DNA from: an uncultured Methanosarcinales archaeon
GTDB taxonomy: Archaea; Nanobdellota; Nanobdellia; Woesearchaeales; UBA12501
Length of the DNA stretch: 64,000 nt
Assembly (NCBI GenBank): GCA_964397315.1
Contig: CAYNHV010000003.1
Span: 19,336 to 83,335, forward strand
Direction of reading: 5' to 3'
Within the stretch, counting starts at the first letter, position 1. Every line of letters starts with the position of its first letter. Positions 36,001-42,000 of the stretch are shown in pieces. A program made the position numbers.

Positions 36001-39000
36001 CCTGATGAATGACATGCAGAAGCACGGTGTCAGCAACGGCTTTCTGGCCACATTCCTTTACGGCAGGGCGGTCAAGCCCGCGCTTATTCCCCTGCTGATC
36101 TTCTACTTCGGCACAATATACACAATAGTCCTCGCTGTTGTTATTGCAGTCACTGCAGTAATACAGGGTTTTATTGTCAATCTTATTGAGGGCCTGATTC
36201 AAAAGCGTAAGGAGGCGGTAAAATGAAAATAGCTGTGGCATCAGAAGGAAAAGAGGAGTCAAGCAATGTGAGCCGAGTGAGCGGAAGAGCTCCATACTAC
36301 CTCATCTTTGAGGACAAGAAGCTGGTCAAGGAGATAAAAAATCCTTTTACAGTGGGTGGAGGGGCAGGTTTCAGCGTAGCGCAGATGCTCATTAATGAGG
36401 GTGTTGACATGGTCATAAGCGGCAACATAGGCTTCAATATGCAGGGAATGCTGGACTCAAAGAATGTTAAGACAAAAATAGTTGAGGGAAAGACAGCCAG
36501 GGAGGCAGTTGATGAGGCTGAGGAGGAGGGGCAATAATCAGCCTTGATTGCCTGCAATGACCACAGGGTGAAAAGAAAATGCCGAGGCCGAGGCTGCGTA
36601 GAAGGATAAGGTTCAGACCTGATGCCACTTACTTCAAGCCAGCTGGAGTGGCTATGGCAGGCCTGGAGCATTCAACACTCACCTTTGATGAGATTGAGGC
36701 ATTGAGGCTCAAGGATTATGAGGGAAGGGGCCAGGCTGAGGCAGCAGAGAGCATGAACGTATCCCAGCCCACCTTCCACAGGCTTCTCATGTCAGCTAGG
36801 AAGAAGGCTGCTGATGCGCTTGTGAATGGCAAGGCAATAAGGATTGAGGGAGGTGATTTCAGGATGGAGCCTGCAGGAAGAGAATCAGGAAGAGGCCTCA
36901 GAGCAGGAGCTGCAAGAGGCAGGAGGCTTGGAGGAGGATTCGCAAAAGGCCCTGCAGGAGAGTGCGCCTGCCCAAAGTGCGGGCACAAGGCTCCTCACGC
37001 AAGAGGCAGGCCATGCTACCAGCAGAAGTGCCCGAAGTGCGGGGCTGTTATGACAAGAGGATGAGAGCATGGGATTGTTTTCATTATTGGGACAAAGCAG
37101 GAAAAGCGGCCTGAGTTGCGACTGGTGCGGGAAAGAGATGGAAAATGCTGCGTGCACAAAGCATGAGGGAAAGAAACGCTTTGTTTTCTGCTCTGAAGCC
37201 TGCAAGAACAGCTTCAGGAAGTCAGGAAAGGGGAAGAGAATGAGCAGAAGCTGCCCTTCATGCCCCACTTCTCCTAAGTCATGGGACTGACACCTCAGAA
37301 CCTTATTATCTTCTTTGGGTCTATCTTCAGGCCCTTGTCAGTTATCTTCAGTTCCATTGTCTTGAGAGGGTGTTTCGTGCCTCTCATCTTTATTACCTCA
37401 ACAGCCCTTTTCCTGACTCCGCTCTTCTTTGTGTTGTAAAGCTTTATGAGAGAGTCAACCTCAAACTCAAGAGTTGTTGAGAATATCTCCTCCCTGCTTG
37501 AGGTGAGCTGGGATGTCAGCACAGCAGTGCACCCCCAGTTGTTTATCAGCTCAAACAGGGAAAGAGCTGCCTCCTTTCTCGTGAGCTCTTCCTTGTAGAG
37601 CAGCGCGAAGGATGTTATTGAGTCTATGGCAATCCTCGTTGCCTTTGACTTTGTTATTATGTTCTCTATTGTCCCTCCGCCCTCTATAAGAACCTTCTTG
37701 ACCTGCTCAGGATTGTACTGCAGGAATATGAACTTTCCCTTTTTCTCGTACTTCTCAAGATCCCAGCCGAATGCCAGCATGTCAGAATAAAGCTTCTCCT
37801 TTTTCTCCTCAAATGTTATGTAAACCCCTGTTTCGCCCTTTTTCAATATCCCCTCAATGAGGAACTGTATTGCGAATATGGTCTTTCCCGTGCCCGCGCT
37901 CCCCACAACAAGGTTTATGCTCTTCTCCTTAAGCCCTCCCTGGACTATCTTGTCAAATCCCTGTATATATGTGGGTACCCTGTGGCTTTTCATGATGTCA
38001 CTGCTATTGTTGTTTCTTTTTTTTGTTTTTGACATCCTGCTCCAGAAGGGAGAAAGGCAGCTCTCCTGTATGCACGTTTATCCCCTCTTTGGTTATTGAC
38101 ATCGGAAACACGTCCAGCTTGTGCGGCTGGCCCCTCATCTTTCCCACGTGAAGAACCCTCTCAAAGATGGATCCCTTTCTTATCATCGTGAGATGCACAA
38201 GCCCCTCAAAGAGAAAGTCCTGCGCTGAGAACCTTATCTCATCCACGTCAAGAGTGAGCCTCTCGGATGTAGCGAGAAGCGTGGATCCCATCCTCTTCAC
38301 GTGCCTTATGAACTCCAGAATACCTTTCCTGAAGTCTATCTCGCTCTCGTAATACACGTACTCAAACAGGGTGAGGGAGTCAAGCACTATCCTCCTCACC
38401 CCCTTCTTCTTTATTGCATTAAGCGGAGCTTCAAGAGAGATTATCTTCTTGCTGGTAAGGTCCTGCTCAAATATCTCCAGCAGCCCGTCCTCATGCTTTT
38501 CAAGATCAACGCCTATCTCTTTGGCGTATTTCCTCAGCGAGTCAGCGCTCTCCTCAGAAGTTATGTACACGCAGGGCTCCTTGTTCCTTATCCCCTCAGA
38601 TATGAACTGCAGGGCAAAGATTGTCTTTCCAGTGCCGGGGCCTCCTGTGAGAAGCACAGAAGAGCCCTCTCTCATGCCTCCCTTGAAAATATCATCCAGG
38701 CCGGGAATGCCTGTCTTTATCAGCCTCATTTTAGAGCCCTGAAATGAAGGGAGTATAAAAATATTTTGTAAATATCTTGTTGGCTGTGTTACACATCTCT
38801 CTGGTTATTGGAGGAAACCAGCGAGAAAGTATTGCACAACAACCACCACCGCAACCTTTATAAACATCTCCTGCCACTTTCAGCAGAGGAAGGCCTCCCA
38901 AAAAGAGCAAGTGATACAATGGCTGTCAAGATAAAGGTTGATTACAAGAACAAGCTGAAGAACCTCAAGGAGTATGTTGTCCTTGCCACTGTTGATTCTG

Positions 39001-42000
39001 AGCATTACATGGCCACGAACCTCGCGCTTGTGAGGCACCTCACCAAGGAAGAGGGCATACCCGGGGTTTATGTCACCCTCAATAAGCCTTTCAAGACAAT
39101 GAAGGCTGTCTTTGAATATTCAAAGATTGACACTGACATGATACTCTTCATTGATGCTGTTACAAAGACAGCAGGAGGCAAGGTTGAGAAGACTGACAAC
39201 TGCCTTTACATAGGAAATCCCGAGAATCTAAGCGACATATCCATGGCAATGGACCAGGCAGTGAGGTCTCTTCTTGCAGAGGAGAAGTTTGTCTTCTTTG
39301 ACTCTCTGAACACCCTACTGCTTTACAATTCCCTCAGCACTGTGGGAAGGTTCGTGCATTTCCTCGCCAGCAAGATGAGGGTGTGGGGAGTGAAGGGCAT
39401 AATCATAAGCCTTGAGAAGAAGGCACACAAGGAGCTGATAGATGAGCTGAACCAGTACTGCGACCTGAAGATGGAGTTTTAGGAAGCCGGCGCACTAAAG
39501 AGGTGGAATAATGAAGAACATTGTCAAGACGATATTTGCTGTGATAGCCATCCTGGCTGGAATAGCTGCTATAATAAGGGTGGCCGGCAGCTACGAGCTG
39601 ATAATACTGTTCATAACACTGACTTTCGGAGTGCTTGCGATAATGTGGAGCTTTATGGCATACTCCTCACTGTCAGCAGGATCTTCCCTCAGGAATTACA
39701 CAGGATATTTCCTTGCCTGCCTTATTTTTGTCCTGATATACTTTCTATGGAACAGCGCTGTCAAGCTTTTTGATATTGGAAGCTCCTGGGAATACCTGAG
39801 CTATATCTTCATGATAGCTGCTTATCTTGTCTTTGCCATAGCAGCCTACAAGATATACCATCTCGGCAGGGAATTCGGCTTCCAGAAAGAGGCTTCAAGG
39901 GTAAAGAAGGCAATGGACAGCAGGAAGAAAAAATAAGCCTGTTTTGTTTTTCTAATGTCTTTTTCTCAGGATATCTTATTAATCTATTGTTAATCTCACA
40001 TGCCAAAGAGCCCTGAGAGCGAGGACATGAGCAGCTCTCTTATGACAAAGAATACTGTTATGGACAGCAGCAGCAGGGGTATTATGTACTTTGCGCCGTC
40101 TTTGGCCTTGCCTTTTGTTATGAGGCCAAGGACAAGAGAGCCGAAAACACAGCTTGTGCTTATGAATATCAGGGAGTAATTCCTTATGAACTCAAGGGGC
40201 ATGGTCACTTCCTTCAGGGATATTGCGACAGATGCTGTCTTCGGGACATCAACAGACGAGAATGTCTCAACAAGTATCTCCACAACAACAGATGACAGGC
40301 TGAAAAGGAATGGCGCTGCAAGGCCTATTGCTATGAATATGAATATCCTGTACATGCCTATGCTTGCCCTTATCTTCTTGTCTGTTAGCTCCTGGTCTCT
40401 GAGGTCCTGGGAGGCCCTCTCAAGCAGCGGCGCAAGCGAGCCTCCCGCCCTTATCCCGTTTACAATGAGGTAGATTGTCTTCTCCAGCTTGTCAGACTTT
40501 ATCCTGGCTGAGAGGTCATTCAGCGCCTTTGTGATGTTCTTTCCTATTGCTATCTCCTTGCCCACCTTGTCAAGCTCTTTCTTGAAGGGGCCGAACTCAG
40601 GCCTTGCTGCCATGAACAGCGCCTTGTCTATTGTTATGCCTGCCCTTAGGTTGCTTGCCATTAGCTGGAGCGCGTCAGGAAGCACAGAGTCAACGAACCT
40701 TCCTTTTCTCTCTGCAGAGAGCGCCAGCCAGGTGAATATGAATGCCTGAGTGGCTGCAAAGAATATTCCAAACACTATCCAGGGGTTGTTGCTGAACAAC
40801 AGGAGGGAGTACACTCCCACCACTGCCGATAGCAGTATTGAGAAGGAGAGCTCAAATCCCAGGAACCTGTTGACCTCAAGGTCTATGTTTGAGTATTCCA
40901 GAAGCTTTACTATCCTCTTCTTCATCCTTCCCGGAAATATTCTTGCTACAAGCCTGTAGGTTGAAAACATATCCTCTCCCTCTCATCAACTCCTGGGTTT
41001 ACTGCAACTCCTGCATTGTCATGCTTTTCTTCACGCGTCATAAAAGATTAGGCCTCTTTGAAGCTATCATGCTTATGAAAAAGAACTGGAACAGCACCAC
41101 AAAACCGTACATGCCCCAGAAGAGCCCCTTAAGGGCCTGCTCCTTGAGCGAGAGAAAGGATCCTATGACCACAAAGAAGGTTACTGCAAGCGCAGGGACA
41201 ATCACCACAAGGAGCATGTAGAACATTGTCAGGGGGTTGAGCTTTGAGCCGTAATCCTGTATCTGCACGACCTGCTCTTCTGAGAGTGACTGGACCATCT
41301 CGGTTAGGACGATGCCCACGTCAGATCCGCTTTTCAGGGCAGTGACAATCTGCCATATCACCCTCTGGAAGTGGATTGAGGGGTTCTCTGTGGCAAGGCT
41401 TTCAAGAGCGTTTATCTGGTGCATGCCCGCGTTTATCTCCTTTACAGCCTTGCGGAACTGCTCTGATATCCCTCCATAATTCTCCTTTGACATGGAGGCC
41501 ATTATGTTATAGAGGGGTATGCCTGAGTTCACCTGCACCTGCATTGTTCTCATCGCAGGGAGCAGGTACTTCTCTATGTTCCTGACCTTCCTGTTCAGAA
41601 GCGCCCGGGGGTAGGTCATCTGCTGGAAGAGCATGAATCCTGTTATCAGCAGCGCGATTCCAGGAGACACCAGGAATGGATAGGGCGCGCCCTGTTTTAG
41701 AGTGACAAGCAGGGCTATGGCGAGGATGAAAATGAACATCAGCGCATCAGAGAAGACAGATGCCCCTATGTATTCCCTGGTCTCAGCCTCTATCTCAGCC
41801 CTCTTCAGATCAAGCTCTATGTCAGGGCTTGATTTTTTTATGAACTCAGCGAGCCAGTAGAAGAGAGGCGCGCCTCTTCTCACAAAACCTTCGGGAAAAA
41901 AGCAATAGGGGACTTTCATTTTTTGATTATCTTTCCGCTGTCAAGGTCTTTCTTCACAGCCTCAACCACTTTGTCCTTGTTAATGTAATACTCCCTCATC

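Follow-up and report, generated by a model that had tools for sequence, protein, structure and literature searches.

A candidate membrane-tethered KaiC/iKaiC module linked to Tad-like pilus genes in Woesearchaeota-like archaea

Four adjoining genes, which we call A to D, lie beside a pilus gene cluster in a 64,000-nucleotide stretch of archaeal contig CAYNHV010000003.1 (assembly GCA_964397315.1; the whole stretch is 'the window', and positions are numbered from its first letter). They encode two single-domain KaiC-family ATPases (A and B), a stand-alone KaiC-fold protein that has lost its P-loop (C, an inactivated KaiC or iKaiC) and a small membrane protein (D). We consider it slightly better than an even bet, with a probability of roughly 0.55, that A–D constitute a KaiC/iKaiC signalling module, tethered to the membrane, by which Woesearchaeota-like DPANN archaea modulate the Epd/Tad-like pilus encoded alongside. 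Our analysis follows up a prediction, made from the same sequence, that drew attention to 37295–39482; the letters A to M denote the genes of 37295..48482 (Table 1).

A and B match the Pfam KaiC family PF06745 over profile positions 1–230 of 231, with 209.5 and 175.1 bits against a cutoff of 26.6. The Walker A lysine and the Walker B aspartate are invariant among 48 orthologues of A and 55 of B, and every B orthologue (55/55) has the GxPGxGK[TS] motif and D117. The catalytic glutamate pair reads TFEE in all 48 A orthologues; in B, the first position is Glu in 50 and Asp in 5 of the 55 sequences and the second is Glu in 42. A K-M-R-G segment is conserved in both sets, and in A, where it reads KMRGT, the Lys and Arg are invariant (48/48) and the Gly and Thr are found in 47 of 48. 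Judged by these retained motifs, A and B are predicted to be active KaiC-type ATPases, in line with the original prediction of two single-domain KaiC ATPases with intact Walker A and B motifs. The two proteins are paralogues (profile–profile alignment, E 8.5e-48, 33% identity), and A is the better conserved, with a median identity across 25 complete loci of 61.7% compared with 48.5% for B. Only B ends in a conserved LPFS tail, placed much like the regulatory C-terminal tail of cyanobacterial KaiC.

To which KaiC-like group A and B belong was judged from bit scores against curated NCBIfam models and from matches in the PDB. Five KaiC models give 111–165 bits for A and 98–126 for B, below their cutoffs. 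The circadian KaiC equivalog (NF006799/TIGR02655) has a cutoff of 408 bits and gives 164.5 for A and 125.5 for B; as single-domain proteins of 232–241 amino acids, A and B fall outside that class. For the ArlH model (NF052589, NF004723 group), the cutoff is 215 bits and the scores are 53.1 and 39.8; for the FlaH subfamily model, the cutoff is 194 and the scores are 54 and 46.8. Scores are lower still for RadB (22 and 23.7 bits; cutoff 172) and RadA (24.6 and 18.9 bits; cutoff 259). The PDB matches follow the same order: the KaiC CI domain is best (128 bits for A, 111 for B), followed by PH0284 (122 and 89), PH0186 (114 and 95) and SSO2452 (87 and 88), with the FlaH structure 4yds far behind (27 and 30). 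RecA/RadA structures match B at about 23–25 bits and A not at all at E<=0.001. From this pattern, we conclude that A and B are generic archaeal single-domain KaiC proteins, neither ArlH orthologues nor RadA/RadB paralogues. The outcome that would have told against the original prediction, placement with the recombination paralogues and no co-occurrence with pilus loci, was therefore not what we found. Its likening of these proteins to FlaH survives as a functional analogy only, because A and B are not of the FlaH/ArlH type. A role in defence or phage biology was also considered and set aside, as PADLOC and PHROGs scans of A–D and H returned only generic P-loop/RecA-superfamily matches.

Protein C was described in the original prediction as a divergently transcribed RecA-fold protein without a P-loop, and this description stands. 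None of 270 members of the C family carries a Walker A motif (GxxxxGK[ST]), and C also lacks the catalytic Glu pair and the KMRG segment. Its Pfam match is to DUF7504 (PF24336; 32.0 bits, cutoff 27), a family that is also precomputed on most C homologues; DUF835 scores 20.6 bits, under its cutoff of 33.1, and KaiC matches weakly. A profile of the C family matched nothing in the PDB, even at E 10, and the fold is therefore established by structure prediction. The AlphaFold model of C (predicted local distance difference test, pLDDT, 88; predicted template-modelling score, pTM, 0.86) has as its top Foldseek matches PH0284 (E 3e-6, TM score 0.70), SSO2452, KaiC, PH0250 and PH0321, with TM scores of 0.62–0.70. 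On this model, C is a KaiC/RecA-fold protein that has lost its P-loop. Alignment of the C family to the A and B families by hhalign is weak (E 0.006–0.008), and we take it as a guide to register, not as proof of relationship. In that register, the segment PGVYVT-LNKP of C lies opposite GIYITFEE of A, and FVFFDSL lies opposite RLVIDSIT, so that the catalytic FEE is replaced by LNKP and a Walker-B-like FFDS is retained; C appears to end ahead of the segment that bears KMRG in A. The protein is strongly conserved, with 45 invariant columns in 28 species and a median identity of 62.5% over the 25 complete loci. Its family is also large, comprising 2509 representative clusters at E<=1e-3. Two relatives carry additional domains. 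In P0131, a protein of 456 amino acids, a KaiB-like N-terminus (weak, 23.7 bits) and a V4R small-molecule-binding domain are combined with a C-type iKaiC domain, a fusion that, judged by its domain matches, ties the C family to KaiB/KaiC-style signalling; in an Altiarchaeota protein (L087, 8001..9398), a C-type iKaiC domain is fused to a WD40 beta-propeller.

Gene D, which adjoins C and was missing from the original prediction, encodes a protein with four hydrophobic helices by hydropathy. It lies within 300 bp after C in 80 of 80 Woesearchaeota/Nanoarchaeota loci, and D is thus an obligate and constant partner of the pseudo-ATPase. The D family has an invariant C-terminal EFGF and a Ser-rich loop, SSLSxGSSLR, both of which should, by the positive-inside rule, lie on the cytoplasmic side. 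Small transmembrane proteins with YGF or FGF tails also follow distant homologues of C in two further loci (L085 and L086).

How firmly the module is tied to pilus genes can be counted from either side. Starting from C, we collected 80 species-level loci and located the window's proteins in each by tblastn. Fifty of these loci have 3 kb or more of flank on each side; in 42 of them B is found within 3 kb of C, and in 39 both A and B are. For G, the pilus ATPase, the count rests on the 33 loci with 6 kb or more of flank on each side: it is within 6 kb of C in 18 of them and within 10 kb in 23. Pilin genes adjoin the module in some further loci in which the ATPase is not in range (L009, L029 and L076, for example). 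Gene order and orientation vary, with inversions or transpositions in L022, L025, L037, L064, L061 and L073, and the linkage survives these rearrangements. The six metal-related genes that flank A in the window are found in none of the 80 loci, and the neighbours on the far side are likewise not retained; outside synteny has therefore decayed fully while the A–D/pilus cluster persists, and the metal cluster is an unrelated neighbour of the KaiC module. By a rough estimate that we did not compute formally, chance would place such an ATPase within 10 kb in a few percent of cases, given a genome of ~1 Mb with one to three such ATPases.

Starting from the pilus side, we scanned metagenome contigs with a profile of G, which yielded more distant orthologues of the ATPase. 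In four loci with ATPases 50–56% identical to G (L091, L092, L095 and L097), a single A-type KaiC, 48–52% identical to A, adjoins tadC, sharing its strand in three of them and convergent with it in L095. In L096, a KaiC, a pilin and a C-like iKaiC are found next to tadC. There is no KaiC in the two loci of the 50–56% group with usable flanks designated L088 and L089, none in seven loci with usable flanks whose ATPases are 43–48% identical, and none in 57 other loci (L111–L167), which hold mostly Tad-like ATPases of 31–40% identity and three short fragments of 49–56%. The link between KaiC and the pilus is thus specific to one pilus clade, within which it recurs in different gene arrangements.

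In the pilus operon itself, a T2SSE ATPase and TadC-type platform genes (two T2SSF), the combination by which we identify an archaeal type IV pilus, are both present. G is related to FlaI (NCBIfam, 290 bits) but falls under the 550-bit cutoff, and E and F match the N and C halves of ArlJ/UpsF weakly. No archaellum-specific family was recognized among the neighbours, and with G under the FlaI cutoff and a split platform, the cluster does not qualify as an arl operon. Each of the proteins I–M has one N-terminal hydrophobic helix after a basic stretch, resembling a class III signal peptide (for example, KGKG/QASLEYLL); none matched a pilin hidden Markov model, the only hits being weak Ig-like ones, and they are conserved in 15–35 related loci. 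The C-terminal ~60 amino acids of H give tblastn matches in 33 related loci and lie just upstream of G orthologues in L094, L098 and L107; H may be an unrecognized pilus component or regulator. No prepilin peptidase of the PibD/FlaK type was seen among the ~45 open reading frames (ORFs) of the window that were scanned, a scan that was not exhaustive. G has a median identity among loci of 58.6%, and A and C are about as conserved as this ATPase.

These observations suggest a model of how the module could work. A and B, made from one tight operon, would be active ATPases, likely autokinases, that probably assemble as ring oligomers. The cytoplasmic EFGF tail of D probably anchors the dead KaiC-fold protein C at the membrane. 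The module most likely uses the ATP/phosphorylation cycle of A and B to sense or time some state, which would then be relayed to the pilus machine (G, E, F and the pilins I–M), modulating its assembly or activity as the main output in this lineage. Such a role would have its analogue at the archaellum motor, in ArlH with ArlX/ArlCDE. ATP-bound, unphosphorylated ArlH hexamers bind ArlI and are released by autophosphorylation (PMC8978795, PMC5019145). Because A and B score far under the ArlH models, this mode of action applies here by analogy only. A more specific arrangement is conceivable, in which A and B serve as an ArlH-like switch and the membrane-anchored C–D pair as a scaffold or stator-like ring, analogous to ArlX/ArlCDE and built from a dead KaiC, so that the four proteins would make up a cytoplasmic control complex beneath the single pilus ATPase of DPANN archaea; we think this quite unlikely in such detail. 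DPANN archaea are believed to rely on contact with a host, which pili, among other structures, have been proposed to mediate (PMC9563170). If the four-part complex did exist, it would provide a phosphorylation-timed switch for a one-ATPase pilus, for example between extension and retraction or rotation, during host attachment.

Several observations weigh against a dedicated pilus function for A–D. The sampled species are related, and the locus counts are therefore not independent events. Eight of the 33 loci with full flanks have B, C and D, six of them also A, with no pilus ATPase within 10 kb; three of the 33 have the pilus without the KaiC pair, and two have neither. Since several loci hold the module without pilus genes, the pilus link is facultative, and the co-occurrence with pilus loci is a non-random association but not a fixed one. 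Around more distant C–D pairs the genes are unrelated; one KaiC (L086) or none (L085) is present, and there are no pilus genes. C–D is therefore the invariant unit, usually accompanied by the KaiC pair and often, though not always, by the pilus. Moreover, the profile match between C and A is weak (E 0.008), so the descent of C from KaiC rests mainly on predicted fold and Pfam. The loci without a pilus ATPase and the distant C–D pairs would fit A–D being a stand-alone unit of a general KaiC signalling hub, in which D provides a membrane input, the output is not specifically the pilus, and adjacency to pilus genes comes from lineage history or from envelope functions being loosely co-regulated. 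The contents of one locus without pilus genes (L012) fit this idea, as C–D are followed there by genes for a secreted, Cys-rich surface protein anchored by its C-terminus and for another iKaiC paralogue, of the DUF7504/DUF835 type (10992..12517). So do the size of the C family (1498 representative clusters at E<=1e-10), the varied fusions of its members to WD40 and KaiB–V4R domains, and the proposal that KaiC proteins act as general hubs in archaea (PMC5847659, citing Makarova 2017). Nevertheless, linkage to the pilus ATPase within 10 kb in 70% of full-flank loci is far above the rough chance estimate and persists though all else around the module has changed, and separate pilus clades independently hold an A-type KaiC inside the operon. 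We therefore regard a general hub as a possible but unlikely account of the locus.

Two further explanations keep A–D near the pilus genes and give them another task. The module could control expression of the pilus genes, as CirA does for arl genes in Haloferax, without docking on the pilus ATPase. The cirA gene encodes a KaiC-like protein, lies divergently beside arlI/arlJ and lowers arl transcript levels (PMC10983859), and A and B likewise lie outside the G–F–E transcription unit; the Lys-rich protein H, at the start of the pilus operon and with a conserved C-terminal domain, could conceivably be a DNA-binding partner. Yet Pfam and NCBIfam scans detected no DNA-binding domain in A–D or H, the related clades have an A-type KaiC co-oriented directly after tadC, like a structural member of the operon, and C is tied to a membrane protein, all of which make a transcriptional route improbable. 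It is very improbable that A and B are aRadC-like paralogues within the RecA superfamily that act on DNA, possibly DNA imported by the pilus, as helpers of recombination or uptake. They do show weak RecA/RadA/DnaB matches over the P-loop region, and they match SSO2452, a KaiC-like protein that has been discussed as a RadA paralogue. Import of DNA by DPANN pili has been proposed (PMC9563170). But the RadA/RadB models as a group give only 17–25 bits against cutoffs of 172–361, with KaiC models scoring far higher; the KaiC CI domain and PH0284 are much better structural matches than RecA/RadA; no repair genes are linked; and what is conserved beside A and B is a dead KaiC with a membrane protein. 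A membrane-tethered signalling module acting on the pilus remains the reading that we favour.

Table 1 Features of the KaiC/iKaiC–pilus region and its flank (positions in the window)
Feature	Position	Strand	Basis
Gene A: single-domain KaiC-family ATPase	37295..38035	-	Pfam KaiC PF06745, E 6e-62, 209 bits
Gene B: second single-domain KaiC-family ATPase, directly upstream of A, same operon	38004..38729	-	PF06745, E 2e-51, 175 bits
Divergent B–C intergenic region with A/T-rich TATA-like boxes	38730..38918	.	read from sequence; putative promoter function
Gene C: 187-aa inactivated KaiC-fold protein (iKaiC, DUF7504/DUF835-like)	38919..39482	+	DUF7504 match, predicted fold
Gene D: 141-aa four-helix membrane protein, Ser-rich loop, C-terminal EFGF	39511..39936	+	hydropathy; after C in 80/80 loci
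Genes E and F: two TadC/ArlJ-half platform proteins (T2SSF)	39996..41919	-	Pfam T2SSF, E 1e-19 and 3e-16 (71 and 60 bits)
Gene G: type IV pilus/secretion ATPase (T2SSE)	41916..43460	-	Pfam T2SSE, 113 bits
Gene H: Lys-rich 288-aa protein, stop overlaps G start by 4 nt	43457..44323	-	no Pfam family
Genes I–M: five pilin-like proteins	44518..48482	-	N-terminal hydrophobic helix after basic stretch
'Metal cluster', six genes: DUF5320, two half-size ArsP-like permease genes, NifX/FeMo-cofactor-like, DUF134 helix-turn-helix, TRASH-domain	34876..37290	+

The original prediction put all three genes between the metal cluster and the Tad-like pilus operon, and the two flanks are indeed a metal-related cluster and a T2SSE/T2SSF operon. 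All of the genes in question exist, and two of their starts needed revision. Homologues of C align from the ATG at 38919 and not from the TTG at 38808 that had been proposed, giving a protein whose length agrees with that of its homologues (183–204 amino acids among the 120 matches listed). For A, the ATG at 37993 is probably the start rather than the codon at 38035, as it gives a product of 232 amino acids, the modal length of its orthologues, which are 231–232 amino acids long. The stop codon of B (38006..38004) lies 10 nt ahead of this in-frame ATG, and A and B therefore form one tight operon. The divergent gap between B and C contains TATA-like boxes at 38754 (TATAAAAATATTTT) and at 38858 (TTTATAAA), the latter ~50 nt upstream of the start codon of C. 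C and D are separated by 28 nt, and a Shine–Dalgarno-like GAGGTG precedes the ATG of D.

The remainder of the window is an ordinary segment of archaeal chromosome, with genes for MCM, an Obg-like GTPase, S19e, and exosome and proteasome components, and Rfam and tRNA scans of the window returned no match. Five tandem ORFs of ~240 amino acids (54295..58015, minus strand), which by their size were suspected to be further KaiC paralogues, belong instead to an exosome superoperon; this stretch encodes an Rrp42/Rrp41-like RNase PH pair, Rrp4, SBDS and a proteasome alpha subunit. Close by, two adjoining ORFs (58588..59552, minus strand) occupy the stretch of lowest GC content in the window (0.39 versus ~0.47); the first of them (58588..59097) matches a DDE_3 transposase, and the pair is probably a broken insertion sequence. 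The nearest relatives are metagenome-assembled genomes of Woesearchaeota/Nanoarchaeota (DPANN). Records titled 'uncultured Methanosarcinales archaeon' (L008, L022, L024, L032, L038 and L045) share the C–D/KaiC/pilus cluster with Woesearchaeota metagenome-assembled genomes, and these taxonomic labels may be unreliable.

More broadly, the locus extends a theme already established for archaeal pili. Makarova, Koonin & Albers (2016, PMC4858521) describe KaiC-family ATPases (arCOGs) as strongly associated with archaeal type IV pilus loci, including clade 2 systems that often have two tadC genes, and PMC9563170 reports Tad clusters with two kaiC copies, interpreted as regulators, in the DPANN Nanohaloarchaeota. 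Our locus shares with these systems the single-domain KaiC-like ATPases, predicted to be regulators, beside a VirB11/TadA-type ATPase, two tadC genes and pilins, and with the Nanohaloarchaeota clusters the two kaiC copies in a DPANN lineage; it differs in adding an obligate iKaiC and a small membrane protein, and in its Woesearchaeota-like lineage. Inactivated KaiC domains, including DUF835 and MEDS, have likewise been described in signalling contexts (PMC5847659, citing Makarova 2017). The association of KaiC with pili, the DPANN Tad clusters with two kaiC genes and the inactivated KaiC domains are all in print; the general idea is not new, and the gain here is incremental. What we add is a quantified, strongly conserved four-gene version of the association in Woesearchaeota-like archaea, an obligate pair of iKaiC and membrane protein with conserved tail motifs, and the presence of A-type KaiC genes within pilus operons that belong to a sister clade. 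The C–D pair is not mentioned in the parts of PMC4858521 and PMC9563170 that give their KaiC–pilus accounts, and Makarova 2017 may already catalogue its neighbourhood. The locus offers a compact candidate control module for DPANN pili, in which the dead KaiC and the terminal motifs EFGF (in D) and LPFS (in B) can serve as experimental handles, and archaeal KaiC signalling gains a large (>1,400 clusters), uniformly P-loop-less family of stand-alone iKaiC proteins with an obligate membrane partner.

Comparison with individual KaiC-like systems places the module more closely. Like ArlH (FlaH), A and B are single-domain proteins of KaiC-like RecA fold whose genes accompany those of a FlaI-type ATPase and an ArlJ-type platform, but they score far under the ArlH model, match 4yds weakly, keep the catalytic Glu pair and occur as two paralogues. 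C shares with the iKaiC domains of DUF835, MEDS and DUF7504 a KaiC fold without Walker A, and matches DUF7504 and, weakly, DUF835; it differs in standing alone, in its separately encoded four-helix membrane partner and in its unusually high conservation. Cyanobacterial KaiC provides, in its CI domain, the best PDB sequence match of A and B and has the same catalytic motifs, whereas its architecture is a CI–CII double domain, A and B are single domains below the equivalog cutoffs, and neither KaiA nor KaiB was seen among the window ORFs scanned. Finally, CirA of Haloferax volcanii, a KaiC-like protein whose gene adjoins the arl genes and which controls motility, offers a case in which a KaiC-like gene lying divergently beside type IV pilus-type motor genes (arlI/arlJ) affects that machine genetically (PMC10983859). 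In its haloarchaeal host, CirA acts on the transcription of archaellum genes, and it is likened to the present module by context, whereas A–D of the Woesearchaeota-like archaea would, on the reading that we favour, act at the pilus itself from a membrane-tethered position.

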